Positions 14,625 through 63,184 of a stretch of DNA of 64,000 nucleotides are shown here, piece by piece. Under the pieces are notes generated by a model. The model was not told the DNA's origin. It searched no databases and saw nothing but the letters and a program-made list of their open reading frames with translations. How positions within the stretch are numbered: position 1 is the first letter of the stretch; each line of letters starts with the position of its first letter. The DNA lies in assembly GCF_030684315.1 (NCBI RefSeq), contig NC_081403.1, forward strand, positions 1,178,001 to 1,242,000, written 5' to 3'. This stretch comes from Stegostoma tigrinum (lineage: Eukaryota). The position numbers were made by a program, and so were the translations under genes.

Positions 14625-15047
14625 TGAGAGAGAGAGAGCGCGAGGGAGCGCGAGGGAGCGCGAGGGAGCGCGAGGGAGCGCGAGGGAGCGCGAGGGAGCG
14701 CGAGGGAGCGCGAGGGAGCGAGAGGGAGCGCGAGGGGCGAGAGGGAGCGCGAGGGAGCGAGAGGGAGCGCGAGCGCGAGAGGGAGCGCGAGCGCGAGAGG
14801 GAGCGCGAGCGCGAGAGGAGAGCGAGCGCGAGAGGGAGAGCGAGCGCGAGAGGGAGAGAGAGCGCGAGAGGGAGAGCGAGCGCGAGAGGAGAGCGAGCCG
14901 CGAGAGGGAGAGCGAGCGCGAGAGGGAGAGCGAGCGCGAGAGGGAGAGAGGCGCGAGCGAGAGGGAGAGAAGAGAGACAGCGCGAGAGAGGGAGAGAAAG
15001 AGAGAGGAGCGCGAGAGAGGAAGAGAGAGAGAGAGAACGCGTGCGTG
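14625..15047. repeat. (GA)n/(GAGCGC)n microsatellite running into the gap
   Basis: cgagggagcg and gagcgcgaga units. Confidence 0.95.
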
Positions 15048-15247
15048 NNNNNNNNNNNNNNNNNNNNNNNNNNNNNNNNNNNNNNNNNNNNNNNNNNNNN
15101 NNNNNNNNNNNNNNNNNNNNNNNNNNNNNNNNNNNNNNNNNNNNNNNNNNNNNNNNNNNNNNNNNNNNNNNNNNNNNNNNNNNNNNNNNNNNNNNNNNNN
15201 NNNNNNNNNNNNNNNNNNNNNNNNNNNNNNNNNNNNNNNNNNNNNNN
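15048..15247. other. Assembly gap (200 N)
   Basis: Round-number N run; the 5' exons of both KAT8 and BCKDK are missing at this point. Confidence 0.98.
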
Positions 15248-15456
15248 ATAGACTGATTGGGATATTAGAGGGTGCGGGGAGTGAGGGGAATGAGTGGGAT
15301 TAGACTGGGTGGGATATTAGAGGTGCGGGGAGTGAGAGTGAGCGGGTTTGGACTGGGTGGGACCTGGCGAGTGGAGGGCACGGGATGCGCTGGCGTTGCC
15401 TTTGCCCATTTTACGAGTAGTTTTTTTTCTCCTTTCCGTGGATTTGTTTTTTCCAG

Positions 15457-24688
<9,232 letters not shown>

Positions 24689-28871: not shown

Positions 28872-31800
28872 GTCAATATGGAGACTGGAGGGAGGGTGGG
28901 TGGGTGGAGAGTGAATAGCATTGGCTGTGATGGTGTACTCCTGTCCCTAGCTCCTAATGCTTATCTCCTGTGTGTGTTCTTGCTGGTCCCCAAATCCCTT
29001 ATTCCTGATCCTTGTACCCCCTGCCCATTCCTGAGCCCTGTCTTTCAATCCCCCCAATTCTTCATTCTCAATCTCTTCCTGTCCCTCATTCCTGATCCTA
29101 ACCCCACCTTGCTCCCTGTTCCTACCCCTCCTTATCCTTCCTTGCTGCTCCCGGATCTTATTGTGCTGTACCCGAACTCCTTTGGGATCCATACTTCATT
29201 CTGATCCCGATGGCTCCGTTGGTGGGTTCGGATCTTGCCTCCAATGTCTGACGTTCCCGGTCTCTCTGCCCGGGCCCGCGCTCCGTGCCTCCCGGAGGCA
29301 GGTTCGATTTGAGGCCGGTGTTGGAGAGGAATGTTGTGCAGCGACACAGAAAGGAAAGGCAAGGCTACTCGTAGCGGCTTCTGGGGGGTGGGGGGGCGGT
29401 GGGTGGCCACCTCCTGTGCCGCGACCATTCTGGAATGCCCTTGCTGAGAGGCTGGTGCTGGGCGCTGTGCTCGCTTCAGAAAGGACTTTTGTGCTTTTAC
29501 AGAAGGTTCACCCTTGGCTCATTGCACCTCCCCCCCCTCCCCCCACTCCCCAACCCCAAGCCTTTTCAGGAGATTGCACCAGTGCCCAGCGGAGGACAGG
29601 ATGCGATCCATATGAAGGAATTGTATAAAACCCCAGATAATAAAATGGGAGGCTGGATGAACACAGCAGGCCAAGCAGCATCTCAGGGGCACAAAAGCTG
29701 ACGTTCCGGGCCTAGACCCTTCATCAGAAGGGTCTAGGCCCGAAACGTCAGCTTTTGTGCTCCTGAGATGCTGCTTGGCCTGCTGTGTTCATCCAGCCTC
29801 CCATTTTATAATCTTGGATTCTCCAGCATCTGCAGTTCCCATTATCTCTGTATAAAATCCCGAGCAGGTTACTGGGAAGGGAGGAGGCTACCGGGAAGGG
29901 AGGAGGCTGAGCAACACGTTCTCCCCCCACCCCCTTCCTCCTGGGGAGAAAGCCTTGTCCCGGTGTCAAAATCTTGTCTTTTCCCCCCAGATGGAGATGA
30001 CAGGGGTGGGGTGTGGAGTTTCCACTCTGCTGAGGAAGGAGGTGGGGGTGCGGGGAGTTGGTGGGAGCCAGGATTGAAGAAAATTACAGCACAGGAACAG
30101 GCCCTTCGGCCCTCCAAGCCTACGCTGATCTCAATCCTTTGTGTAAGCCTGTCGCCTGTTTTCCAAGGATCTCCATCCCTCTGCTCCCTGCCTATTCATG
30201 TATCTGTCGAGGTACATCTTAAACGATGCTATCGTGCCCTCCTCTACCACCTCCGCTGGCAACGCGTTCCAGGCACCCACCACCCTCTGTGTAAAGAACT
30301 TACCACGCATATCTCCTTTAAACTTTTTCCCTCTCGCCTTGAACTCATGACCCCTAGTAATTGAGTCCCCCAGTCTGGGAGAAAGCTTCCTGCTCTCCAC
30401 CCTGTCTATACCCCTCATGATTTTGTAGACCTCAATCAGGTCCCCCCCTCAATCTCCGTCTTTCTAATGTAAATAGTCCTTATCTACTCAACTTCTCTTC
30501 ATAGCTAGCACCCTCCATACCAGGCAACATCCTGGTGAACCTGTTCTGTACCCTCTCCAAAGCATCCATATCCTTTTGGTCGCCGAATGTACGCTGAATC
30601 CGAGTTGTCAATTTTTTTTTGGTTTTAAACTGTAGTAAAATCTAATATGATTCCAACGTGACGAGACGGGGATTGAGAACAAGGATAGGGCAGCTGCTCA
30701 GAATAATGGCGTGGTTTGGCCGGGGGTGGGTGCGGTGCGGTCGGTCATGCTCAAAAGTGTGCGTGAGATGAGGAGCGATGTGTTCATCCAGACAGCAGGG
30801 AGCCTGTGGGATTCTCTGCCACAGAAAGTGGTTGGAGCTGAAGTGTTGTAGAAGGTTTTTGAACATTTACCATGAGAACTTGATCCATTGGGTCAATGGG
30901 CTGAGGAGGGACAGACTTAATTTGGATAAATGTGAGGGGTTGCGTTCTGGTGAAATGAAGGAAGGGCAGGAGTTGGGTCGCGCTGTAGAACTCAGGGACA
31001 TAACTCTTAGAAGTTGCTGGCCCACATAGACAGGGGGTTTGAGAAGGAGTTTGACACATTTGCCTTCAGTGCTCAGAGAGCTTTGAGTGTAAGAGCTAGG
31101 GACGTCACGTTGAGGTTGGACAGGGACGTCGGTGAGGCCCGTTGTGTTACCGGAAGGATGTTATTGAACTGGAGAGGGGTTCGGGAGAGACCGGGATGTT
31201 GCCAGGAATGGTGGTTTGAGCTATAAGGAGAGGCTGGGACCTTTTTTCTACTGGAGTGTTGGCGGTTGAGAGGTGACCTTGTAGAGGTTTATAAAATCAT
31301 GAGGGGGCTGAATGGCAGGTGTCTTTTTCCCCAGGGGTTGGGGGCATATGTAGAACAGGGGGCATATTTTTCAGGTGAGAGGAGAGAGATTTAAAACAGA
31401 TAAAAGGGGCAACTATTTTTACGCCGAGAGAGTGGTCTATGCGTGGGATGGCCTTGCAGTGGAAGGAGTGAAAAGGACATTTGGGATAAGTGTGCAAACA
31501 GGAAAGGGTCTGGAGGGCTTTGGGCGAGCAGCTGGCAGGTGGGACTGGTTTAGTTTTGGATCACGGTCGGCATGGACTGGTTGGGCCGAAGGGTCCATTT
31601 CCCTGCCGTACAGCGACATTCGCTGTTTCTCGCAAGGGAGTCAGATGTAATTCGGAAGGAGTTGGGGCTGTGTGTTGGTGTGTGTGTGTGTGTGTTGGTG
31701 TGTGTGTTGGGGCGGGGCAGGGTTTGCGGAGGGGAAAGTGGGGAACGGGGAGGTGAGTCGCACGAATTCCCGTCCCCAGGAAAGAGACAGGAGCCAAAGT

Positions 31801-33749
31801 GTTGAAAGTTTCCTGGGAGAAGGTTGTGGGGGGTTGGGGGGTGGGGAACCATTTTGGACGATGGGCCAGTGGTGCTGTACAGTCTCACGGGGACGTGGCT
31901 GCCACCCCGCTCCGCCACCGCCTGCTCTCACCCTCCCTCTCCCTCTTTCTCTCTCTCCCCTCTTCCCCCCTCCCCATCTCTCTCTGTCTCTTCCCCCCCC
32001 TCCCTGTTGTGTCCCGCAGGCCAAGGGCAAGGTGAAACCCAAAGCCCCAATGTCCTCCAGCAAGGCGGCAAGCGGGGCACGGCGCCGACGGACTCGCTGT
32101 CGCAAGTGCGATGCCTGCCAGAAGACAGAGTGTGGGGAGTGCCACTTCTGTAAGGACATGAAGAAATTCGGGGGGCCCGGACGCATGAAACAGTCCTGCA
32201 TGCTCCGCCAGTGCACAGCGGTGAGTTCGCCACCCACCGCCCTCCATGCTGTTCCCCCGCCCCCATCAAACACCCCCAGGGACAGGGTCAGTGACAGCAC
32301 GGGATTAGGTACAGGGTAAGGCTCTCTCTACACTACCCCCGCCCCCCCCCCCCCCCCATCAAACACCCCCAGGGACAGGGACAGCGCGGGGTTAGATACA
32401 GGCTAAAGCTCTCTCTACACTGTCCCCCCCACCATCACACTCCCAGGGACAGGGACAGCATGGGGTTAGGTACAGGGTAAGGCTCCCTCGGCACTGTTTC
32501 CGCCCCCCCCCCCCAATCACACACTCCCAGGGACAGCATGGGGTTAGATACAGAGGAAAGCTTCTTCTACATTGTCCCTCTCCCCAGGGACAGGGACAGC
32601 GCGGGGTCAGAGTGAAGTTGCCTCCCTGTTGACTCAAGTGTTTTCTCTGTCTCCCTGCCCCTCGGTCCGTGCCTGTGGGTGGAGGTAGCCTGTACTCCCT
32701 CACACGGCCGTCTGCCTCATGTGTGGGGACGCTGGCAAGGAGGAGTCTGTCGAAGGCGAGGCCGAGAAGTTCAAGCTCTCGCTGATGGAGTGCACCATCT
32801 GTAACGAGATTGTCCATCCGGGCTGCCTGAAGGTGAGGAATCGTTCCCCCCACCGACCCTCGTGCCCGAAGCAGGCTGCGTTTCCTTCAGTCTAAACCCC
32901 CCCGCACCATCTGTCTCTCTCCCTCAGGTCTGCGCGGCGGACGGAGTCATTAATGACGAGATTCCCAACTGCTGGGAGTGCCCCAGGTGCCAGCTCGAGG
33001 GTAAGACTGGCAAGGTGAGTGTCCCACCCATGGGGACGGGGTCAGCGGTGGGGAGGGTTTTGGAGACTGTTGATGAACAAAGAGACGTTGCCCTGCAGGT
33101 TCGTAGCTCCTTGAAAGTGGGTAGCCAAGGCGGTGTTTGGTATGCTTGCCTTTAGTGGTCAGTGTGTTGATCGTACGGAGTTGGGGGGGCCGGGGTGTCG
33201 GGGTTCATGTTGCCGCTGTGTTGGTGAGGACACTTTGGGGAACACCACTTTCGATCCTGCTCTCCCTGCTACAGGAACGAGGTTGGGAAAGGGGTTTGGA
33301 AAAGGGAAGTCGGAGGGTTTGAGCTACAGGGAGAGGCTGGGGTCTATTCTCCCCAGAGCATCGGGGTGGGGGCGGGGTGACCCTTATAGAGGTTTATAAC
33401 ATCATGAGGGGCATGGACATTTGGGAATAGTCAAGGACTTCTCCCCAGAGTTAAGGGGAGTGTCCAAAACTGAAGGGTGAGAGGGGAAAGATTTAAAAGG
33501 GGCAACATTTTCACACAGAGGGGGTGGTGCGTGTGTGGAATGAGCTGCCAGGGCAATTGTTTGAGGCTGGTACAGTTATAGCATTTAAAAGGCATCTGAA
33601 GAGGTATATGGATAGGAAGGGTTTGGAGGGGTGGGGGCCAAATGCTGGCGTACAGGGGTGAGTGGGTGAGTGCGTGGGTGGTGGCGTGGGGATTGGTGGC
33701 CGGCTGAGTGTCTGTGTGTATGTATATGGGCATGCACGCGCAGACAGGA

Positions 33750-36341: not shown

Positions 36342-39300
36342 ACACACACCTCACTCAGTCGCAGCAGTGTGTACCCTGCAGACATTCACCAGAGACCCTC
36401 GGGCAGCAGATATGTGGGCAACACCACCACCCCCACATGTTCCCCTCCCCGCCAGGGCTCAGAAACCATTCCTTCAGGGCTGCTGGGCCCAAATCCTGGG
36501 GGTGCCCTGAACAGCACAGAGGGTGTCCCCCATGCCAAACAGACTGCGGAATGAAGGCAGCTCACCCCACAACCAGCACCACCTTCGCGGGTACCTGGAG
36601 ATGGGCTAAAAACTCTGCCCTGGCCAGCGAAACCAAACCCCCACCCAAACCCTTGTGTGTGTCGTTGCACTTCTGTTTCAATTCTACGGCACAACTATAG
36701 CATGACAAACCTTATTAAAGTGAGGAACTTGCTGTGTGTGGGTGTGTGTACAATTGCAACGTTTAAAGTGACATTCGGATAAGGAAAGTTCTAGAGGGAT
36801 TGGGGCCAGGAGCAGGCCGGAGGGACTAGTTTAGGATTATGGTCGGCACGGACTGGTTGGGCCGAAGGGTCTGTTTCTGTGCTGTATGACTGTATAACTC
36901 GGAGTGGTCAGTATCAAATATGGGTAAGAATAAAAGATAATTGGTGAGAAAAGGGGTCTAGAAATGGCAAGATAACAAAGTGTGGAGCTGGATGAACACA
37001 GCAGGCCAAGCAGCACCTCGGGAGCACAAAAGCTGACGTTTCGGGCCTGGACCCTCCTTCAAAGAGGGGGATGAAGGGTCCAGGCCCAAAACGTCAGCTT
37101 TTGTGCTCCCGAGGTGCTGCTTGGCCTGCTGTGTTCATCCAGCTCCACACTTTGTTATCTCGGATTCTCCAGCATCTGCAGTTCCCATTATCTCTCTAGA
37201 AATGGCAAACCCAAATGGCCTACATCGTTTAGGTTCACAAGAGAGGTAGTTACAAAGTGCGCAAAGACACTGCTCATAGCACTGCAAGACTCCTGAGGTC
37301 CGACAGCAGCCCCAGCAAATTGGAAGGGAACAGATGTGATACGGCTATTCCCGAAAGCAGGGGTACTAGGCAGGCTAGGATGGATCACAGAGTCATACAG
37401 CATGGGAACAGACCCTTCCATCCAACCAACCATCTCACCCGTGCCAACTGGGTTCCGAAACTCTCGTCCCATTTGCCTGCATCCCTCTAATCCTTTCCCA
37501 TTCACATCCCCATCCAGATGCCTTTTAAATGCTGTAGCTGCACCAGCCTCCCACCCACTTCCCCTGGCGCAAGGGTGTTACCGGGGTTAGAGGGTTTGAG
37601 CTGGAGGGAGAGGCGGAATAGCCTGGGGCGATTTTCCCCGCAGCGCCTGAGGCTTATAGAGGTTTATAATATCACGAGAGGGCTGGAGGGTGAATAGGCA
37701 AGGCTTTTTCCCCTGAGGTAGGGGCAGAGGTCCAAACCTGAAGGGCATAGGTTGAAGGTGAGAGGGGAAAGATTTAAAAGGGACCCAAGGGGCAACACCT
37801 TTCACACAGAGGGTGGTGTGTGTATGGTTGGAGCTGCCAGGGGAAACAGGTGGGAGGCTGGTGCAGTTACAGCATTGAAAAGGCATCTGCACGGGGACAT
37901 GGATAGGAAGGGGTTAGAGGGATATGGGCCAAATGCTGGCAAATGGGACTGGATTAATTTAGGATATCTGGTCAGGTTGGGTCGAAGGGATTATTTCTGT
38001 GCTGTATGTCTTCATGACGCAGGTGGAACCTAGGCAATTCTGGAATGGGATTTTGGAATGACATTCCCAGTATGTTTAAAGGCATGACACCCTTCTCTGT
38101 CACAGAACAGCAGCAGGCTGAACCGGGGGAGGAGAGAGGGAGGGAGGGAGGGAAGAGGGCGGGGAAGAGGGAGAGAAAGATGTCGAAACGGTGAATGGAA
38201 AGTGCTCTGTATCCCAGGTGCTGTGTGTAACAGGCTGTTTGACCAGGTGAAGCAGGTTAGAACGAGGGAGGCAGCTCCAGGGCTGGAATTCACTGGGTCT
38301 GTTAGTCAACACTGCCACACTCGCAGTGGCTCCAGAGTAACTTGCAGTCACCCCTTGTGGGAGGCACTCCCACATTCCAACGCACCCCAGCCTCTCCAGG
38401 GAAAGGCACGCCTCCTGAATTCCCAGTTTGTGCACGGCGCTCCCAGTGTGGGTCTGACCGAGGGGTACAGGGACAGGAACTGTGCACGGCGCTCCCAGTG
38501 TGGGACTGACCGAGGGATACAGGGACAGGAACTGTGCACGGCGCTGCCAGTGTGGGTCTGACCGAGGGATACAGGGACAGGAACTGTGCACGGCGCTCCC
38601 AGTGTGGGTCTGACCAAGGGGTACAGGGACAGGAACTGTGCACGGTGCTCCCAGTGTGGGACTGACCGAGGGATACAGGGACAGGAACTGTGCACGGCGC
38701 TCCCAGTGTGGGTCTGAGCGAGGGATACAGGGACAGGAAGTGTGCACGGCGCTCCCAGTGTGGGTCTGACCGAGGGATACAGGGACAGGAACTGTGCACG
38801 GCGCTCCCAGTGTGGGTCTGACCGAGGGATACAGGGACAGGAACTGTGCACGGCGCTCCCAGTGTGGGACTGACCGAGGGATACAGGGACAGGAAGTGTG
38901 CACGGCGCTCCCAGTGTGGGTCTGAGCGAGGGATACAGGGACAGGAACTGTGCACGGTGCTCCCAGTGTGGGTCTGACCGAGGGATACAGAGACAGGAAC
39001 TGTGCACGGCGCTCCCAGTGTGAGACTGACCGAGGGATACAGGGACAGGAACTGTGCACGGTGCTCCCAGTGTGGGTCTGAGCGAGGGATCCAGGGACAG
39101 GAACTGTGCACGGTGCTCCCAGTGTGGGTCTGACCGAGGGATACAGAGACAGGAACTGTGCACGGTGCTCCCAGTGTGGGTCTGACCGAGGGACACAGGG
39201 ACAGGAACTGTGCACGGTGCTCCCAGTGTGGGTCTGAGCGAGGGATACAGAGACAGGAACTGTGCACGGTGCTCCCAGTGTGGGTCTGACCGAGGGACAC

Positions 39301-39923
39301 AGGGACAGGAACTGTGCACGGTGCTCCCAGTGTGGGTCTGAGCGAGGGATACAGGGACAGGAACTGTGCACGGTGCTCCCAGTGTGGGTCTGACTGAGGG
39401 ATACAGGGACAGGAACTGTGCACGGCGCTCCCAGTGTGGGTCTGACCGAGGGATACAGGGACAGGAACTGTGCACGGCGCTCCCAGTGTGGGACTGACCG
39501 AGGGATACAGGGACAGGAACTGTGCACGGTGCTCCCAGTGTGGGTCTGAGCGAGGGATACAGGGACAGGAACTGTGCACCGTGCTCCCAGTGTGGATCTG
39601 ACCGAGTGATATGGAGACAGAAGCTGTGCACGGTATTTGTTATGGGGACCATGATGATTGCTGACTCTGCCAATCCTGTTTCGGGTCATGCCGCACTGGG
39701 ACTGGGCTCCCACCCAGCTTTGCCAATATTCATGGACCCACCTGAAAACTTTTAAGAAAGCTGTTTGGCCATTTGGATGGGTAGGGGCCTTTGCACCTCT
39801 ACCCTCTACCCCGGTCACACTCTGGTTACTCTGGTACATGTGGGTGGGGACCCGAGTTGTCGTTAGTTTTTAGTCAGTATTGTCAGATGTTGTGCGACAG
39901 GGCGTTGCTCCATTCTGATGGCA

Positions 39924-39965
<42 letters not shown>

Positions 39966-42772
39966 CTCTGTCTGTTTGTCTGGCTCTCTCTCCCCTGCAC
40001 TCTGCCCCCACTTCCCTCCTTCTCCGCCTCCCCCCTCCTCCCTTCCCTCTCTCCCTCCTCCCTCTGCCTTTCTCGCCCCATGCTCCAGGTGCTGTGATAA
40101 ACAATTGTGGACCAAGATTGACCTGAGCAGACAGAAGTCGATCACACCAGCCATGCTGAGTGGGATTATCAGGAGGCAACCCATTACCCTGGACCTCAGC
40201 TGGACCAGTATCTCGAAGAAACAGCTCATGTGGCTCATGAACCGGCTGCAGGGTGAGAGGGCGCAGGGAGGGGCCGGGCGGGTGGGAAGAGCGTGCAGGG
40301 AGGGGCCGGGCGGGGGGAAGCAGTCACCTCGCAACCCCCCCTCGCAGTCATCGCTCCCTGTCTGTTCCTGAGGATTGGGACAGGTGATAATGGAGGGTTG
40401 GGAGGGAGTGGAGGAACAAAGGTCTTTATGGTGGTTGTGGAAGCCCAGAGTCTGACCTCAGTGTCCCTGTTCTCTCTGGTCCTTGCCCAGGCCTGAAGGA
40501 GCTGATCCTGTCCGGGTGTTCCTGGTCCTCAGTGTCTGCTCTCTGTTCAGCCAGTTGTTCTTGCCTGAGGCTACTCGACCTTCGCTGGGTCGAGGACGTG
40601 AAGGACTCACACCTCCGTGAACTCATCTCCCCTCCAAGTGACACCCGGCCAGGTAGGAATTGAGGGGAGGGGACAGTGTGGGATTTACATGGGGCTCGGT
40701 GGGAGTGTGTGGGGGGAGCTTAGACAGTAACTGGGGGGTTGTGAGCCTCCTGCAGTAACAGCCCCTGACCAGTGGGTGGGGGCAGTGAACCTCCTGCAGT
40801 AACAGCCCCTGACCAGTGGGTGGGGGCGGTGAGCCTCCTGCAGTAACAGCCCCTGACCAGTGGGTGGGGGCAGTGAGACTCCTGCAGTAACAGCCCCTGA
40901 CCAGTGGGTGGGGGCAGTGAACCTCCTGCAGTAACAGCCCCTGACCAGTGGGTGGGGGCGGTGAGCCTCCTGCAGTAACAGCCCCTGACCAGTGGGTGGG
41001 GGCAGTGAACCTCCTGCAGTAACAGCCCCTGACCAGTGGGTGGGGGCGGTGAGCCTCCTGCAGTAACAGCCCCTGACCAGTGGGTGGGGGCGGTGAGCCT
41101 CCTGCAGTAACAGCCCCTGACCAGTGGGTGGGGGCGGTGAGCCTCCTGCAGTAACAGCCCCTGACCAGTGGGTGGGGGCGGTGAACCTCCTGCAGTAACA
41201 GCCCCTGACCAGTGGGTGGGGGCGGTGAGCCTCCTGCAGTAACAGCCCCTGACCAGTGGGTGGGGGCAGTGAGCCTCCTGCAGTAACAGCCCCTGACCAG
41301 TGGGTGGGCGTGGTGAGCCTCCTGCAGTAACAGCCCCTGACCAGTGGGTGGGGGCGGTGAGCCTCCTGCAGTAACAGCCCCTGACCAGTGGGTGGGCGTG
41401 GTGAGCCTCCTGCAGTAACAGCCCCTGACCAGTGGGTGGGGGCGGTGAGCCTCCTGCAGTAACAGCCCCTGACCAGTGGGTGGGGGGGGTGATAAGCCTC
41501 CTGCAGTAACAGCCCCTGACCAGTGGGTGGGGGCAGTGAGCCTCCTGCAGTAACAGCCCCTGACCAGTGGGTGGGGGGTGATGAGCCTCCTGCAGTAACA
41601 GCCCCTGACCAGTGGGTGGGGGCAGTGAGCCTCCTGCAGTAACAGCCCCTGACCAGTGGGTGGGGGCAGTGAGCCTCCTGCAGTAACAGCCCCTGACCAG
41701 TGGGTGGGGGCGGTGAACCTCCTGCAGTAACAGCCCCTGACCAGTGGGTGGGGGCAGTGAACCTCCTGCAGTAACAGCCCCTGACCAGTGGGTGGGGGCA
41801 GTGAACCTCCTGCAGTAACAGCCCCTGACCAGTGGGTGGGGGCAGTGAGCCTCCTGCAGTAACAGCCCCTGACCAGTGGGTGGGGGCGGTGAACCTCCTG
41901 CAGTAACAGCCCCTGACCAGTGGGTGGGGGCAGTGAACCTCCTGCAGTAACAGCCCCTGACCAGTGGGTGGGGGCGGTGAACCTCCTGCAGTAACAGCCC
42001 CTGACCAGTGTGAGGTGGTGATGAGACTCCTGCAGTTAGCCCTGTACTGAGTGCCGGAGCCTGTTCCTGCCCCTTCCACAGGTCAGAACGAGCATCGAGG
42101 GAGGCTGCCAAACCTGTCGGAGCTGCGGCTTGCTGGCCTGGACATCAATGACACGTCACTGCGCCTCTTGGTGCGACACCTCCCACAGCTGAACAGTCTC
42201 GATCTCAGCCACTGTCCACACGTTGGAGACCAGTCTGTGAACCTACTGACCGCTGCCAATTCCCAACTCCGGGACAATCTGACTGAGATCAACCTGTCGG
42301 GTAACTGCTTCCTCCTCTGCCTTCGATTGTCTATCACCGCCGTCCGTCCCTCCTCCTGTCTCAGTCTGTCCATCACCGCCGTCCGTCCCTCCTCCTGTCT
42401 CAGTCTGTCTATCACCGCCGTCTGTCCCTCCTCCTGTCTCAGTCTGTCTATCACCGCCGTCCGTCCCGTCTCAGTCTCTCTATCACCGCCGTCTGTCCCG
42501 TCTCCTGTCTCAGTCTCTCTATCACCGCCGTCCGTCCCTCCTCCTGTCTCAGTCTCTCTATCACCGCTGTCCATCCCTCCTCCAGTCTCAGTCTCTCTAT
42601 CACCACCGTCCGTTCCCTCCTCCTGTCTCAGTCTCTCTATCACGGCCTTCCGTCCCTCCATCGCACCTTCTATCTCTGTGTTCCCTTTTCTCTCCCTTGT
42701 CCCTGCTTCGACACTGTTCTACCTCTCTCTCTCTCTCTCTCTCTGTCTCTCCCCCCCCGCACTGTCCTACAC

Positions 42773-53199: not shown

Positions 53200-56100
53200 C
53201 CTCGCGCACCCCAGACCTACCTCGGAGCTTCTCACCCGGCCCAAGGTGACAGGCAAAGCCAAAGTCAGAGAGTCGGATATGGGCCTGTTCATCCAGCAGG
53301 ATATTCTCGGTTTTCACATCCCGGTGCACGATGTCCCGGCTGTGGAGATAGTCAATGGCCTCTAGGAGCTCCCTCATAACATTCCTGCCCGGTTGTAAAG
53401 GGGAGGTAGACAAGATGAGGTGGTGAAGTGACAGAATTTACAAGGAGTACTCAATAAACCCTTGATGTGTGTTCCTAATTGCCTGTTGCCTTGTGGCCCT
53501 GTCACGCTGAATTCCCCAATTTAACAAGAATCCACACGCCTCCAAAATATTCAACACCCTTGGCTCTGAATGACTGAAGTTGCTCACCTTTCAGGGAGAA
53601 GAAACCACATTTGAGTCAACGTCCTGAAAAGGGTGACTCCTAGTTGTAAAACCCATGCCCCCCCCACCCATACTCCTGCCACATGAGGAAATATCCTTCC
53701 CATGTCCATCTTATCCACGTGCTTCAGTGACTAACACTCCTCAATGAGGTCACTCCTCCCTCCTCTAAACTCAGTCCCCCCCCCCCCCCTCTCTCTCAGG
53801 GAGATATCTATCTGTACACTGACTGGTGTCTCTCAGTGACCCCTCTCTCTCTCTCAGGGAGATATCTGTACACTGTCTGGTGTCTCTCAGTCCCCCCCTC
53901 TCCCTCTCTCAGGGAGATATCTGTACACTGACTGGTGTCTCTCAGTCCCCGCCTCTCCCTCTCTCAGGGAGATATCTGTACACTGACTGGTGTCTCTCAG
54001 TCCCCCCCTCTCTCTCTCTCAGGGAGGTATCTGTACACTGACTGGTGTCTCTCAGTGACACCCTCCCCCCGCCCAATCTCTCAGGGAGATATCTGTACAC
54101 TGACTGGTGTCTCTCAGTCCCCCCCCGCTCTCTCTCAGGGAGATATCTGTACACTGACTGGTCTCTCTCAGTCCCCTCTCTCTCAGGGAGATATCTGTAC
54201 ACTGACTGGTGTCTCTCAGTCCCCCCTCTCTCTCTCAGGGAGATATCTGTACACTGACTGGCGTCTCGCAGTCCCCCCTCTCTCAGGGAGATATCTGTAC
54301 ACTGACTGGTGTCTCTCAGTTCCCCCCTCTCTCTCTCAGGGAGATATCTGTACACTGACTGGTGTCTCTCAGTTCCCCCCTCTCTCTCTCAGGGAGATAT
54401 CTGTACACTGACTGGTGTCTCTCAGTCCCCCCCTCTCTCTCTCTCAGGGAGATATCTGTACACTGACTGGTGTCTCTCAGTCCCCCCTCTCTCTCTCAGG
54501 GAGATATCTGTACACTGACTGGTGTCTCACAGTCCCCCCCCCTCTCTCTCAGGGAGATATCTGTACACTGACTGGTGTCTCTCAGTCCCTCTCTCTCTCT
54601 CTATCAGGGAGATATCTGTACACTGACTGGTGTCTCTCAGTCCCCTCTCTCTCTCTCTCTCTCAGGGAGATATCTGTACACTGACTGGTGTCTCTCAGTT
54701 CCCCCCTCTCTCTCTCAGGTTGATATCTGTACACTGACTGGTGTCTCTCAGTTCCCCCCTCTCTCTCTCAGGGAGATATCTGTACACTGACTGGTGTCTC
54801 TCAGTTCCCCCCTCTCTCTCTCAGGGAGATATCTGTACACTGACTGGTGTCTCTCAGTCCCCCCCTCTCTCTCTCTCAGGGAGATATCTGTACACTGACT
54901 GGTGTCTCTCAGTACCCCCTCTCTCTCTCTCAGGGAGATATCTGTACACTGACTGGTGTCTCTCAGTCCCCCCTCTCTCTCTCTCTCAGGGAGATATCTG
55001 TACACTAACTGGTGTCTCTCAGTCCCCTCTCTCTCTCTCAGGGAGATATCTGTACACTGACTGGTGTCTCGCAGTCCCCCCTCTCTCAGGGAGATATCTG
55101 TACACTGACTGGTGTCTCTCAGTCCCCCCTCTCTCTCTCAGGGAGATATCTGGACACTGACTGGTGTCTCTCAGTCCCCCCTCTCTCTCTCAGGGAGATA
55201 TCTGTACACTGACTGGTGTCTCTCAGTCCCCTCTCTCTCTCTCTCAGGGAGATATCTGTACACTGACTGGTGTCTCTCAGTCCCCCCCCCCTCTCTCTCT
55301 CAGGGAGATATCTGTACACTGACTGGTGTCTCTCAGTCCCCCCTCTCTCTCAGGGAGATATCTGTACACTGACCGGTGTCTCTCAGTCCCCTCTCTCTCT
55401 CAGGGAGATATCTGTACACTGACTGGTGTCTCTCAGTCCCCCCTCTCTCTCAGGGAGATATCTGTACACTGACTGGTGTCTCTCAGTCCCCCCTCTCTCT
55501 CAGGGAGATATCTGTACACTGACCGGTGTCTCTCAGTCCCCCCCCTCTCTCTCAGGGAGATATCTGTACACTGTCTGGTGTCTCTCAGTCCCCCCTCTCT
55601 CTCTCTCTCAGGGAGATATCTGTACACTGACTGGTCTCTCTCAGTCCCCTCTCTCTCAGGGAGATATCTGTACACTGACTGGTGTCTCTCAGTCCCCTCT
55701 CTCTCTCTCTCAGGGAGATATCTGTACACTGACTGGTGTCTCTCAGTCCCCCCTCTCTCTCTCAGGGAGATATCTGTACACTGACTGGTGTCTCTCAGTC
55801 CCCCCCCCTCTCTCTCTCAGGGAGATATCTGTACACTGACTGGTGTCTCTCAGTCCCCCCCCCCTCTCTCTCTCTCAGGGAGATATCTGTACACTGACTG
55901 GTGTCTCTCAGTCCCCCCCCCCCTCTCTCTCTCTCAGGGAGATATCTGTACACTGACTGGTGTCTCTCAGTCCCCCCTCTCTCTCTCAGGGAGATATCTG
56001 TACACTGACTGGTGTCTCTCTGTTCCCCCCTCTCTCTCTCAGGGAGATATCTGTACACTGACTGGTGTCTCTCTGTCCCCCCCCCTCTCTCTCAGGGAGA

Positions 56101-59100
56101 TATCTGTACACTGACTGGTGTCTCTCAGTCCCCCCTCTCTCTCTCATGGAGATATCTGTACACTGACTGGTGTCTCTCAGTCCCCCCCTCTCTCTCTCAG
56201 GGAGATATCTGTACACTGACTGGCGTCTCGCAGTCCCCCCCCCGACCTCTCTCAGGGAGATATCTGTACACTGACTGGTGTCTCTCAGTCCCCCCTCTCT
56301 CTCTCAGGGAGATATCTGTACACTGACTGGCGTCTCGCAGTCCCCCCCCCGACCTCTCTCAGGGAGATATCTGTACACTGACTGGTGTCTCTCAGTCCCC
56401 CCCCGACCTCTCTCAGGGAGATATCTGTACACTGACTGGTGTCTCTCAGTCCCCCCCCGACCTCTCTCAGGGAGATATCTGTACACTGACTGGTGTCTCT
56501 CAGTCCCCCCTCTCTCTCTCTCTCTCAGGGAGATATCTGTACACTGACTGGTGTCTCTCAGTCCCCCCCACTCTCTCTCTCTCTCAGGGAGATATCTGTA
56601 CACTGACTGGTGTCTCTCAGTCCCCCCCTCTCTCTCTCAGGGAGATATCTGTACACTGACTGGTGTCTCTCAGTCCCCCCCTCTCTCTCTCTCAGGGAGA
56701 TATCTGTACACTGACTGGTGTCTCTCAGTCCCCCCCTCTCTCTCTCTTAGGGAGATATCTGTACACTGACTGGTGTCTCTCAGTCCCCCCCTCTCTCTCT
56801 CTCAGGGAGATATCTGTACACTGACTGGTGTCTCTCAGTCCCCCCCTCTCTCAGGGAGATATCTGTACACTGACTGGTGTCTCTCAGTCCCCCCTCTCTC
56901 TCTCTCTCAGGGAGATATCTGTACACTGACTGGTGTCTCTCAGTCCCCCCCCCCCCCCTCTCTCTCTCAGGGAGATATCTGTACACTGACTGGTGTCTCT
57001 CAGTCCCCCCCTCTCTCTCTCAGGGAGATATCTGTACACTGACTGGCGTCTCGCAGTCCCCCCCCTGACCTCTCTCAGGGAGATATCTGTACACTGACTG
57101 GCGTCTCTCAGTCCCCCCCTCTCTCTCTCAGGGAGATATCTGTACACTGACTGGTGTCTCTCAGTCCCCCCCTCTCTCACTCAGGGAGATATCTGAACAC
57201 TGACTGGTGTCTCTCAGTCCCCCCCTCTCTCTCTCAGGGAGATATCTGTACACTGACTGGTGTCTCTCAGTTACCCCTCTCTCAGGGAGATATCTGTACA
57301 CTGACTGGTGTCTCTCTGTCCCCCCTCTCTCAGGGAGATATCTGTACACTGACTGGTGTCTCTCAGTTCCTCCCCTCACTCAGGGAGATATCTGTACACT
57401 GACTGGTGTCTCTCAGTCCCCCCTCTCTCTCTCAGGGAGATATCTGTACACTGACTGGTGTCTCTCAGTCCCCCCCTCTCTCACTCAGGGAGATATCTGT
57501 ACACTGACTGGTGTCTCTCAGTCTCCCCCTCTCTCTCTCAGGGAGATATCTGTACACTGACTGGTGTCTCTCTGTCCCCCCTCTCTCAGGGAGATATCTG
57601 TACACTGACTGGTGTCTCTCTGTCCCCCCTCTCTCAGGGAGATATCTGTACACTGACTGGTGTCTCTCAGTTCCTCCCCTCACTCAGGGAGATATCTGTA
57701 CACTGACTGGTGTCTCTCAGTCCCCCCTCTCTCTCTCAGGGAGATATCTGTACACTGACTGGTGTCTCTCAGTCCCCCCTCTCTCTCTCAGGGAGATATC
57801 TGTACACTGACTGGTGTCTCTCAGTACCCCCTCTCTCTCTCTCAGGGAGATATCTGTACACTGACTGGTGTCTCTCAGTCCCCCCTCTCTCTCTCAGGGA
57901 GATATCTGTACACTGACTGGCGTCTCGCAGTCCCCCCCCCGACCTCTCTCAGGGAGGTACATTAACAGGAGACACTTCATTCTTTCAGCATCCCCACTAA
58001 TGTCAGGCCAGTTCAGATCTTACCATCTCTCTCTCCCTACCTGGTTTCCTTCTCGCTCAGCACCACTTTGTGAGTGAGGTAGTCAAACAGCTCCCCTCGC
58101 TTCATCCTGTAAGAAAAGGAAATGGAAGAGGTTATCCTCCATCCCACACTGACAGGGTGCCGAGCTCGGGTTAGGGTAGTTGTGTGGCTGTGCAGTGAGT
58201 GGGGAGCTGTGACAGCTCTGGGGAAGGTTGAGAGAGGGGGAAGGGACTACCCGTCACCTGGGAATTGCAAATTCCTGATACTTACAGATCAAACACGAGG
58301 AAGGTAACGGTCTCAGAGGTGTAGTAGTCAATGAGTGTGACTGTAGAGAGGGAAGGAAACGTCACAGTTAGCTAAGATATAAGTTTACAGCGAGAGCCGT
58401 AACCTAGCACCCAGGCTCGGGTCCTACAGTGGGGGTGGGGGGGAACCACAGTTCCGCCTTCAAAGCTAAGGCCCCACGCCGGGAGGCCTCGGCTCGCGCC
58501 CAGGCTCCGGCCCACGCCGGGAGACCTCGGCTCGCGCCCAGGCTCCGGCCCACGCCGGGAGACCTCGGCTCGCGCCCAGGCTCCGGCCCACGCCGGGAGA
58601 CCTCGGCTCGCGCCCAGGCTCCGGCCCACGCCGGGAGACCTCGGCTCGCGCCCAGGCTCCGGCCCACGCCGGGAGGCCTCGGCTCGCGCCCAGGCTCCGG
58701 CCCACGCCGGGAGGCCTCGGCTCGCGCCCAGGCTCCGGCCCACGCCGGGAGGCCTCGGCTCGCGCCCAGGCTCCGGCCCACGCCGGGAGGCCTCGGCTCG
58801 CGCCCAGGCTCCGGCCCACGCCGGGAGGCCTCGGCTCGCGCCCAGGCTCCGGCCCACGCCGGGAGGCCTCGGCTCGCGCCCAGGCTCCGGCCCACGCCGG
58901 GAGACCTCGGCTCGCGCCCAGGCTCCGGCCCACGCCGGGAGACCTCGGCTCGCGCCCAGGCTCCGGCCCACGCCGGGAGACCTCGGCTCGCGCCCAGGCT
59001 CTCAGACAGTGCAGGTCCAAGTCCTGCTTTGCCCATGTACGCCCACTCTCGATCCCTAGCACACGTGAAGCACGATTCCTTACTGATGTTCGGATGTCCG

Positions 59101-60651
59101 GAGACCACCTGTAAGATCTCGATCTCCTTCTGGGTGGATCTGCGGACCTCGTCCAGCTGGTCCGGGCTCATGCTCTCGTCGGTAACCTCGATGATCTTCA
59201 CAGCGTACTCCATGTCCGTCCTCTTGTGGATGCATCTCTGGACCACACTGCTGACCCCCCTGGTGGAAAATGCGAGCAGGTCAAGGTGACTTCAAGAGAT
59301 TCAGCTGTTGTGTTGGACATATCCAGGCCCTGTCCTGTCCTAGTCTGAAGCACATCCACCCAAACACGCATGTACACAGCAACGTGTTTCCGGCTGGCTG
59401 GGCTCGGACTGGCCCAGTAGCGATGCCTATTTGCAAGAGGCTATTGGTGTATTTTTACCAACAGAACGGCGTTCATGCACAAACTCTGCCACACCTGTGC
59501 AGAACTCTCTGTAATAAACCCGCTGCAGAAATTGGAAATAGGCATTCAACTGCTCTATCCTCCACAACAACCTTAGGTGATGCTCAAACCTCAGTGCGGG
59601 ATCACCCCTGTCCCACGTTAAGACTTTTTTTCTCAGCTAGCACAACTGCAATCTGTTCATCTTCATCAAATCTCCGCATTCACTCCTATTTCATTTCGCG
59701 AACATGTCTTCCCGAGGCCAGTCAACAAGCTAACTAAGATGACTGAAGACATAACGTGTTCCTCAGACTCGACATGAGTCAAAACATCAAAAGTGCTTGG
59801 ACATCTCAGTCACAAGGACGCACACACAATTGGAGTTGGGGGGTCATGTTGCAGCTGTACAGGACGTCGGTGAGGCCATTTTTAGAATACTGCTTCCAAT
59901 TCTGGTAGCCCTTCTGTCGGAGAGATGCGAAGCTTGAGAGGATGCAAAGAAGATTTACAAGGATGTTGCCGGGACTGGAGGGTTTGCGATACAGGCAGAG
60001 GCTGGATAGGCTGGGGCTATTTTCCCTGGAGTGGTCGGAAGCTGAAATCACGTGGGCATGGTTAGGGGGAAGAGTCAAGTCTTTTCCCCAGGGTAGTGGA
60101 GTCTAAAACTAGAGGTGCATATGTTTAAGGTAAGAGGAGAAAGAAATAAAAGGGACGTGAGAGGCAACTTTTTCATGCAGAGGGCGGTGCGTGTAAGGTA
60201 TGAGCTGTCAGAGGAAGTGGGTGGGAGGCTGGTACAGTTATAGCATTTAAAAGGCTTCTGGAAGGGTCCATGAATAGGAAGGGGTTATGGGCCAAATGCT
60301 GGCAAGTGGGACTAGGTTAATTTGGGATATCTGGGTCGGCATGGATGGGTTGGGCCGAATGGTCTGTTTCTGAGCTGTATGACTCTAATTAAACCATAAA
60401 CTATATCTTCCTCCTTCTGAACTTACAAGATAGAAATACAACTGGAAACATGAAACCAAACATCATTCTCCACGTAACATATCACCATGCACTCATTAAC
60501 GTGTGCAGCTACAGTCATTAACACACACTCGCTTTCTCTCCCACACTCGGTCATGAAGTGGGCCTTACCTTCCGATCACCTCCTTGGGATTATATTTCTG
60601 ATAGAAGCCACTGGCCGCCACCTCCTCCTCCTGTCTCAAATCCCGCGTCAT
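50392..60651 (-). CDS. PHKG2: Phosphorylase kinase catalytic gamma subunit, PHKG2-like, 397 aa
   Basis: Exons 60569-60651, 59084-59259, 58286-58340, 58041-58106, 53221-53384, 52902-52992, 52142-52295, 51489-51611 and 50392-50673 total 1194 nt in phase. [29 protein letters not shown], CaM-binding [18 protein letters not shown]. Synteny favours PHKG2 over PHKG1. Confidence 0.88.
50930..51320. repeat. C-rich degenerate ~45-bp repeat
   Basis: cctcctcctaccttcctcccgtcccggaccacccctccca units. Confidence 0.8.
51489..51611 (-). CDS. PHKG2: PHKG2 exon ([24 protein letters not shown]...RMFR)
   Basis: AG/GT bounded. Confidence 0.93.
51700..52115. repeat. About 70-bp dispersed tandem repeat
   Basis: Same unit as 32255 and 49920. 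Confidence 0.85.
52142..52295 (-). CDS. PHKG2: PHKG2 exon ([22 protein letters not shown]...TVKDL)
   Basis: AG/GT bounded. Confidence 0.95.
52902..52992 (-). CDS. PHKG2: PHKG2 exon ([30 protein letters not shown])
   Basis: APE motif; AG/GT bounded. Confidence 0.95.
53221..53384 (-). CDS. PHKG2: PHKG2 exon (NVMRELL...[11 protein letters not shown]...SDFGFAC...KLR)
   Basis: HRD and DFG motifs. Confidence 0.95.
53775..57960. repeat. 4.2-kb satellite of roughly 80 copies of a ~50-56-bp unit in a PHKG2 intron
   Basis: Nearly invariant core cagggagatatctgtacactgactggtgtctctcagt plus a variable (C)n(TC)n linker. Confidence 0.97.
58041..58106 (-). CDS. PHKG2: PHKG2 exon ([22 protein letters not shown])
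   Basis: 66 nt, AG/GT bounded. Confidence 0.95.
58286..58340 (-). CDS. PHKG2: PHKG2 exon ([18 protein letters not shown])
   Basis: 55 nt, AG/GT bounded. Confidence 0.93.
58470..59002. repeat. 38-bp CpG-rich minisatellite, about 14 copies
   Basis: Unit ggcccacgccgggagacctcggctcgcgcccaggctcc. Confidence 0.95.
59084..59259 (-). CDS. PHKG2: PHKG2 exon ([23 protein letters not shown]...SGHPNI)
   Basis: AVK catalytic lysine; 176 nt. Confidence 0.95.
59830..60390 (+). mobile_element. CR1 LINE 3' fragment
   Basis: gtgaggccatttttagaatactgc..., gagagggatgcaaagaagatttacaaggatgttgcc-type sequence, tail gggccgaatggtctgtttctgagctgtatgactct. Confidence 0.85.
60569..60651 (-). CDS. PHKG2: PHKG2 first coding exon ([28 protein letters not shown])
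   Basis: cgcag|gaaaacATG ... AG|GTAAGG; a non-coding exon 1 was not located. Confidence 0.9.
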
Positions 60652-61315: not shown

Positions 61316-61578
61316 GGCAACATTTTGAGAACACAGAGGGAGGTCAGGTCAGGTTGGGTCTAGCCAAAGCCACTGGGGGCAAATCCGAAACCGAACACAC
61401 CAATGGGAGATTTGGGAAGCTCCGTCCAGCAGTCCGAGGAAGGAAACTTACATTTTGAAAAGGCTTCTACTGGCAACGGGTCATGCCAAGGACCATCAAC
61501 TGGCACGTTGCACCCTCTGTTTGCTGCATCAGAAGCTTTGACAGCCAGCTCCAGCACAGCAAACTCCCAGAGGACAGG

Positions 61579-61793
61579 GATAGCAGGAACTGCAGATGCT
61601 GGAGAATCCGAGATACCAACGTGTGGAGCTGGATGAACACAGCAGGCCAAGGAGCAGAGGAGCAGGAGAGCTGACGTTTTGGGCCTAGACCCTTCATCAG
61701 AAAATGAAGAAGGGTCTAGGCCCGAAACGCCAGCCTTCCTGCACCACTGACGCTGCTTGGCCTGCTGTGTTCATCCAGCTCCACACCCTGTTA
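61579..61793 (-). mobile_element. Foldback Penelope-like element, copy C (opposite orientation)
   Basis: Exact 14-bp TSD TCCCAGAGGACAGG at 61565-61578 and 61794-61807; tail on the left. Confidence 0.85.
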
Positions 61794-63184
61794 TCCCAGA
61801 GGACAGGATCAGGTTTCTTTCAAATTAGCTAGCAGAGGACGAACACTGCAGTCCAGGATACATCATGCCAGCAGAGGGGCGGGGTGACACTTGCATTTGT
61901 CAGGGAGGCAGTTTCAACACTGTCCACCATTCAGGTAATCCTTCGGCGCCGAACCTCCGACAGCACGGCGCTCCCTCGGCGCCGACCCTCCGACCGCATG
62001 GCGCTCCCTCGGTGCTGGCCGAGGGCAGTGAGAGCGACAGTAGGTTGAAATGAGCACACAGACACACACACACACACACACACGCGCGCTCCAAGTCCGA
62101 ATTCCCAAAGCGTTCCCCGCAACCTAACACAGATGTCCCGATCTGCACTCCCCCAGGGACAGAGGGCTCTTGCGAAGTTGGGTGCAGGGGGTGCTGAGAG
62201 ATACATACGCATGGTTGCAGTTCCCCGGAGCTCTGAGCTTTTGGTTCAATGCCAGTGTTGGCCCAATGGCAGAGGGTCATGCTGGGTCACCAGTGCGTAC
62301 AATCCCAGTCAAACTGATTGAATTTGGAGATTGGAGATTGGAGATAAGATTGCCCCTCATCAGAATGGGAGGGCGATGATTGAATTAACAGAGACAATGG
62401 GGCTGCTGTGAGTAACAGACACACACAAATGGTCAGAGATCTGACCAACAGGAGTGGGGACTCTCTTCCTCCCTGCCTTTGGGACTCGTCAGCCCAACCC
62501 TCCTGACCTTCCAGAGAAAGGTCTAGTGTAAGAAGAGGTTGTTCAGCCCCTCGGCTCTGTGCTGGATCTTTGTTGGACTTAGTCAATTCATTCCATCCCA
62601 GCCACGTTCTATCCTCCCAATCCCTTTCATCTTTGTCTGAACCCCTTGCTTCAGATGACCACCGCAACTCAACACATTACTCCTCATCTCACCACCCCGG
62701 TGACCGACGGCCTTCAATCTGTCTGCCCCAAACCATTCCTAACAGTTCTGCTCCCGAGAACACAGTCTCTCCCCAACTAGTTGATCAAAAACCCTTCCAG
62801 ATCTCAAACATCTAAAGTCAATTTCCTCCTGAACCTTGTCTGCTCTGAGGAAAACAATTTCCATCTGCTTCCAGACTCTCTAGCTGAACTCGGGACCACC
62901 CACCTGTCCCAAGTGCCCATTCGGGTAAATCTCTCTCTCTCTAGGCACTGTGCAAACTCAGGGGGCCTGAAACTGGGAGTAGCAAGTGACCAATTTGGGC
63001 CTATCCAGGGTTTTTGAAAGGACTTGGCAATTTGGCTTTGGTACCCAATGAGAAAGATAAATAATTACACATAACTTTATTATTAAAATTGCCGATTAGT
63101 CCAATGAACTTAGGAAGGGGCACTTGTGGCAGGGGTGGGGGGTGGAGCAGCTTGGAGCAGGTAGCGGTAATAGAGAGGGGGTTG

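Follow-up and report, generated by a model that had tools for sequence, protein, structure and literature searches.

Hammerhead-bearing hairpins in Stegostoma tigrinum as probable dual-priming by-products of an abundant Penelope-like element

Penelope-like elements (PLEs) are known to insert with an inverted, truncated pLTR, a tail of 30-40 bp, and a target-site duplication (TSD), and to carry a hammerhead ribozyme (PMC3846280, PMC8557442, PMC4209133). In EN+ PLEs, the inversion has been explained by self-priming or by endonuclease resolution (PMC3846280, PMC8557442). PLE hammerheads have been described as dimeric (Lunse et al. 2016, as cited in PMC6765202), and their cleavage in vivo has been left open, PMC4209133 writing of an “absence of in vivo evidence.” In vitro, a PLE enzyme extended both strands from two reverse transcriptase (RT) start sites that bound the tail, and uncut RNA of this Anolis element was the main template, with no reads at the cut (PMC11167929). 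Two further systems are close. In L1 twin priming, a second RT is primed from the other DNA end (PMC11702581), and the animal non-LTR retrozymes are ORF-less, hammerhead-bearing PLE derivatives (bioRxiv 10.64898/2026.07.22.740005).

The window analyzed here, a stretch of 64 kb of Stegostoma tigrinum DNA, contains three hairpins (copies A, B, and C), and no further copy was found in it. The sequence-only reading of this DNA had presented them as three hairpins of one design, and the design is real, with TSDs of 13-14 bp and a 34-nt tail on one side only. Element positions are numbered from the C of CUGAUGA (position 0), which places the predicted ribozyme cut between +27 and +28. Copy A starts with its left TSD (29622..29634; 13 bp, one mismatch to the right TSD), followed by a tail-less inverted arm on the minus strand (29635..29728) that covers element positions -1/0 to about +93. 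The head-to-head joint (29727..29728) is a 2-nt microhomology common to both arms. The direct arm on the plus strand (29727..29814) starts at +5, so that CUGAU is missing, and leads into the one-sided PLE tail of 34 nt (29815..29848, plus strand) and the right TSD (29849..29861; 13 bp). The two TSDs share 12 of 13 bases (9 exact), and the arms (94 nt) are 95% complementary. Copy B lies on the plus strand at 36957..37208 including its 14-bp TSDs (at 36957 and 37195). Its arms (91 nt) are 97% complementary and mirror three private variants; the inverted arm extends to between -8 and -12 and the direct arm begins between +2 and +7. Copy C, on the minus strand at 61565..61807 with 14-bp TSDs at 61565 and 61794, belongs to a T-run subfamily and is more decayed and older. 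Its direct arm begins at about -4 and its inverted arm at +1, the tail arm being 5 nt longer.

The parent element is abundant. In counts made on the 3.2-Gb assembly, a 28-nt piece of the tail gave 72,426 exact matches genome-wide and its control 0. At this density, about one tail per 44 kb, finding three copies in 64 kb calls for no special function. A Penelope origin had been proposed from the letters, and long copies bear it out, since their pLTR-hammerhead-tail segment is contiguous with an RT/GIY-YIG ORF. The ORF upstream of the segment contains YIDD, a C-x4-C-x2-C linker (in the ORF of locus L019), and a GIY-YIG motif. Pfam searches with the ORFs of L019 and L097 returned RVT_1 (E 2.5e-5) and GIY-YIG (E 0.0018), both below the curated gathering cut-offs. 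The segment follows the ORF in L019 and precedes its ATG in L281 and L284; in copies where it precedes the ORF, the ATG is at +167. As the segment is found both before and after the ORF, the arm corresponds to the front of the element RNA and to the end of the 3' pLTR.

The layout is that of the EN+ PLEs as given for Adineta Pen2a_Av (PMC3846280) and in the general scheme of PMC8557442. RT is followed by GIY-YIG in one ORF, a pLTR with a hammerhead stands at both ORF ends in partial tandems, and insertions show an inverted 5'-truncated pLTR, a one-sided tail, and a variable TSD (106 of the 188 sampled copies described below are inverted). The linker agrees with the CX2-5CxxC definition for Neptune/Nematis (PMC8557442). 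By sequence, copies A-C are the front-of-RNA segment (pLTR, minimal hammerhead, and tail) of this EN+ Penelope-like element, whose type and layout are ordinary for the group, the layout being already published. Unlike in the published EN+ PLEs, 83 of the 106 inverted copies here are without any ORF or promoter, and the position of the joint could be mapped to two single-base edges.

An unrelated origin of the hairpins, as a DNA-transposon MITE, a miRNA gene, or an assembly artefact, is extremely improbable. Long inverted repeats are what a MITE or miRNA gene would have, and Rfam mir-3622 scored 54 bits, below its 78-bit threshold; we rejected the Rfam miRNA matches in the window as generic hairpin matches below threshold. 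The TSDs vary in length and the tail is on one side only, against a MITE, and the linkage of the sequence to an RT/GIY-YIG ORF refutes all three possibilities.

The sequence-only reading had placed copies A and B in introns of FBXL19 and copy C just 5' of the first coding exon of PHKG2. For these genes the domain searches gave only domains, and we take the two names as assumed. Copy B lies between the PHD and LRR exons of a CXXC/PHD gene and is therefore intronic. Copy A is found downstream of BCKDK-like exons and 2.2 kb ahead of the CXXC exon; its intron status is unproven, no exon of the CXXC gene being found upstream of it among 145 of the 152 plus-strand ORFs scanned. Copy C is indeed upstream of the start codon of a kinase gene, which is phosphorylase-kinase-like, at a distance of about 0.9 kb. 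The BCKDK-like gene exons (Pfam BCDHK_Adom3) are on the plus strand at 15421-19081, upstream of the CXXC gene.

The hammerhead core that had been reconstructed by overlaying the arms is correct. The intact 30-nt core has 90,316 exact matches genome-wide, with 0 for the reversed control. It is also true that no arm in the window is fully intact, as a regular expression for the intact core had 0 matches on either strand. In copy A, the plus-strand arm lacks CUGAU (stem II 29730-29741, GAAA 29742-29745, predicted cut between 29749 and 29750), and the minus-strand core (29700..29727, predicted cut after 29700) is complete but broken by a G for A13 at 29706, leaving neither arm with an intact catalytic core. 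The direct arms of copies B and C have A for G12. An Rfam search of the window at E 5 gave no hammerhead match. At the level of the family, the assignment to the minimal type-I hammerheads was upheld, the descriptor (CUGANGA, an extra base, stem II, GAAA, a palindromic stem III, and an NUH cut) being passed by 64 of the 102 direct arms and 33 of the 54 inverted arms long enough to include the core. Like the metazoan PLE minimal hammerheads of PMC4209133, the family has CUGAUGA, one extra base before stem II, G10.1-C11.1, GAAA, and a palindromic, loopless stem III. Stem I, rightly described as very short, is 2 bp, as in D. virilis, vs. the usual 4-5 bp (PMC4209133). Unlike the hammerheads described there, stem II here has 4 bp and a palindromic loop, and the copy A core is mutated. 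The predicted fold of the monomer is not hammerhead-shaped, and that of L284:1386-1560, which holds the tail and ORF start with the core outside, was unremarkable (z -0.33). A 13-codon short frame opens at an AUG inside the hammerhead core, directly after the likely RNA start discussed below. Copy A is most likely an inert stub.

To see where the arms end, 188 copies were sampled blind to the apex, taking the first 100 tail matches on contig C1 and 90 of the 100 listed matches of a second tail pattern, thinned by flanking host bases, with two duplicates dropped. Twelve putative inversions with an outer end outside the pLTR were counted as non-inverted, and the 30 best DNA matches, which are biased to the copy A joint, were excluded from all apex counts. 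The parser misplaces some very long arms (e.g., L108 and L116), and L168, L172, and L174 are clipped by the flank; both affect only the bins upstream of -30. Among the 106 inverted copies, the TSD is at least 8 bp in 96 (median 14, spread 8-18), with 12-17 bp in 78. The tail-less arm mostly ends on the outside at +85..+96 and the tail at +127 to about +133, and these outer ends mark two start sites about 35 nt apart. This resembles PAc, a Poseidon element of Anolis, in which two internal RT start sites bound the tail and both strands are extended (PMC11167929).

The inner ends are far from random, as the sequence-only reading had suspected. Of 294 arm ends, 113 fall in -8..+8 and only 3 in -30..-9, a stop rate of 0.046 vs. 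0.0017 ends per nt. Another 20 fall in +9..+27, 45 in +28..+40, 19 in +41..+60, and 81 upstream of -30. Both arms end at the core front in 30 of the 106 inverted copies and at least one arm does in 58. The same two end clusters are found in the non-inverted copies (25/82 and 10/82). At the joint of L042, a 17-nt telomere-like repeat is inserted between the arms.

The sequence-only reading had explained the hairpins by a fold-back. In a model of this kind, one cDNA, or an antisense RNA as has been proposed for rotifer PLEs, would loop at the ribozyme and copy itself, any asymmetry coming from a later central deletion. The arms of a copy are certainly related. They are both short in 83 and both long in 21 of the 106 inverted copies, with 2 mixed (Fisher p 6e-20), and across 76 copies subfamily variants were mirrored 87 times vs. 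27 +/- 5 in 1000 shuffles and rare variants 8 times vs. 0.3 expected. The 124 rare variants that are unmirrored are expected from later mutation, but they limit the test. Such shared variants and matched lengths favor a fold-back, as do the native micro-hairpin that spans CUGAUGA in the predicted fold and the self-priming already proposed in PMC3846280. However, a folded-back cDNA copies only what it holds, and the tail arm should therefore always be the longer one. The tail-less arm was longer in 51 of 104 inverted copies, copies A and B among them, vs. 45 for the tail arm and 8 ambiguous. Where the difference is at least 10 nt, the tail-less arm leads in 35 copies and the tail arm in 28, and among the 21 long pairs there are 8 whose tail-less arm exceeds the tail arm by hundreds of bases. 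A single fold-back cannot give this result, and the fold-back is not supported. The presence of the same end clusters in non-inverted copies and the persistence of single-base edges, which heavy secondary deletion would blur, also argue against it, and we consider it quite unlikely.

Twin priming, in which a single RNA is reverse-transcribed twice on one and the same pLTR copy, is likely and is the simplest reading, even if a later deletion at the palindrome center could add arm asymmetry in single copies, which is a point against it. The likeness to L1 extends to the priming of a second RT at the other DNA end, a preserved TSD of 12-18 bp, microhomology at the joint, and an extra G at full-length 5' ends (PMC11702581). 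The L1 pieces are adjacent parts of the RNA (PMC11702581), whereas both arms here cover the same stretch and form a palindrome. We propose that the element enzyme would use both nicks of a single staggered cut to prime reverse transcription, at the two start sites some 35 nt from each other, and that each cDNA would terminate by run-off at what is likely the capped start of the RNA. Priming within the front pLTR copy would yield short stubs that terminate where the RNA ends, and priming within the 3' pLTR copy would yield long, randomly truncated arms. The two cDNA ends may then be joined bluntly or by microhomology, and each stub would be a dead, promoterless by-product. Copy A is thus quite probably a head-to-head insertion of two short front-end copies made by dual-nick priming, with run-off at the likely capped start. 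In the open-access literature, including PMC11167929 without its supplements, neither twin priming nor truncation at the cut site was found described for PLEs.

The stubs might instead form a non-autonomous hairpin family that propagates itself, the PLE enzyme copying each hairpin whole, in line with the earlier suggestion of a non-autonomous PLE derivative. There are 11,953 loci genome-wide with a head-to-head joint within 30 nt between two stem II copies, and the exact joint of copy A occurs at 23 loci among the 30 best matches. However, the joints differ widely from copy to copy, with the copy A joint at 1 of 50 listed loci, and this joint is found on three tail variants or subfamily backgrounds (17, 5, and 1), which suggests that the type of joint is not tied to the arm sequence. 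Moreover, the stubs lack the promoter region with its TATA-like box, and their transcript would form one long duplex. We therefore abandoned the idea of such a family, which is very improbable.

If the short arms are made by run-off, as we favor, their ends should mark ends of the RNA. The first edge is at -4, where 10,058 arms genome-wide begin after a non-native base. Of 59 long arms, 57 carry a TATA-like box, and in 46 it sits at -34, a distance of 30 nt above -4. The T-run subfamily fits the TCT initiator consensus YYCTTTYY (PMC4102762), and the main subfamily is one base off. The likely RNA start (element -8..+2) reads as a C followed by five pyrimidines and is 5'TOP-like. The base before the arm is G in 34 of 53 non-templated rows at -4 vs. 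13 of 38 at +28 (Fisher p 0.006, counted by eye, after removal of 13 point variants of long copies and of rows templated by the other arm, and with C excluded by both search patterns). Untemplated linkers in the fetched loci end in G in 12 of 13 cases at -4 vs. 3 of 8 at +28 (p 0.014). In capped full-length L1 insertions, an extra G marks copying of the cap (PMC11702581). An edge 30 nt below a TATA-like box with an excess of untemplated G is likely a capped transcription start and not a ribozyme cut. Against this, the inverted arm of copy B overshoots the main -4 edge and extends to at least -8. Among 100 listed rows, 5 are long copies (L207, L210, and 3 others) with G for C at -5, where a cap-derived G would fall.

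The second edge coincides with the predicted cut. Arms starting at +27, +28, and +29 number 663, 3,657, and 700 genome-wide, and the +28..+40 cluster also holds in the non-inverted copies (10 vs. 4, p 3e-4). Judged by eye, 100 listed +28 rows comprise 55 perfect palindromes, 7 variants of longer copies, and 38 informative rows, the last corresponding to about 1,400 arms. The palindromes center on a 4-nt self-complementary site, so microhomology alone could favor them. Variants of longer copies make up about 27 of 100 listed +27 rows and 21 of 100 listed +29 rows (by eye), and the +27 remainder of about 480 arms is close to the number expected from +28 arms that happen to be preceded by a C. 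The +28 edge may be the 5' end of hammerhead-cut RNA, which would be a hint of cleavage in the living animal. Against a cut are a second peak at +33/+34, 5-6 nt downstream of it, that it does not explain (14 arms vs. 9 at +28, n=294), the 2-bp stem I, the monomer without a hammerhead fold, and the Anolis element, for which uncut RNA was the main template and the cut had no reads (PMC11167929). The sequence-only reading, which had put the fold-back at the ribozyme core, was right about an end cluster at the core front and missed the class starting exactly at the predicted cut. In copy A, 22-28 nt separate the scissile bond from the apex, which lies upstream of it, and the joint of this copy was therefore not made by ribozyme cutting.

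Under twin priming, both edges could also reflect stalling of the RT, either on hammerhead RNA that is folded or bound by protein or on G-rich cDNA, without being ends of the RNA. The clusters span 12-16 nt and lie on either side of the ribozyme, and the extra peak at +33/+34 would fit as well. Stalling should not, however, leave such hard upstream edges, with 3 arms in -30..-9 and a +27 count close to chance spill-over from +28, nor an excess of G only at -4, and arms do not accumulate at the 3' foot of stem II (1 of 294 arms at +20). We regard stalling as unlikely.

Taken as RNA ends, the two edges lead to a broader reading, for which we hold the chances to be slightly better than even. The copies may be a fossil record of the PLE cycle at the resolution of single bases, in which a dimeric enzyme would copy one RNA from both nicks, a capped pyrimidine start 4 nt before the hammerhead would let the ribozyme remove the cap, and more than 1,000 germline insertions would derive from cut RNA. 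If true, this would be the first in vivo evidence of cleavage by a metazoan PLE minimal hammerhead. PAc likewise has its hammerhead near the RNA front (PMC11167929). Its ORF starts inside the hammerhead, whereas the ATG here is at +167, and no PAc reads mapped to the cut, whereas here the predicted cut is the starting point of thousands of genomic copies. What makes these copies valuable is their population, which bears on how inverted pLTRs form and on cutting by PLE hammerheads in vivo, and which gives single-base predictions: a capped start at -4, a 5'-OH end at +28, and either arm being the longer one.

The genome also contains head-to-tail arrays of the same element, on C1 at 104860944-104862293, 110519779-110520691, 140329148-140330177, 165409516-165411427, and 49657917-49658674, with periods of 166, 293, 313, 329, 336, and 362 bp. 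In related loci the ORF is deleted between its start and the pLTR. These head-to-tail, ORF-deleted arrays look like non-LTR retrozymes, which are head-to-tail tandems (bioRxiv 10.64898/2026.07.22.740005). We rejected a retrozyme identity for copies A-C, which are single head-to-head insertions and not head-to-tail hammerhead tandems. In tandem units of 100 nt at C1:4383881-4384015 and in L303, the tail leads at its end directly into the base that follows the predicted cut.

Other repeats were noted in the window. A 234-nt inverted pair at 15014-15247 and 17330-17563 consists of purine/pyrimidine simple repeats, both largely N. A dispersed repeat occurs in inverted pairs at 37472-37568, 37836-37932, 33563-33641, and 60209-60287 (78-84% alike) and is unrelated to the Penelope stub by BLAST. 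Many intronic minisatellites were noted, at 22694-24404, 38325-39768, 40593-42172, 53785-57900, and 58359-59115, with periods of 79, 52, 44, 52-55, and 38 bp.
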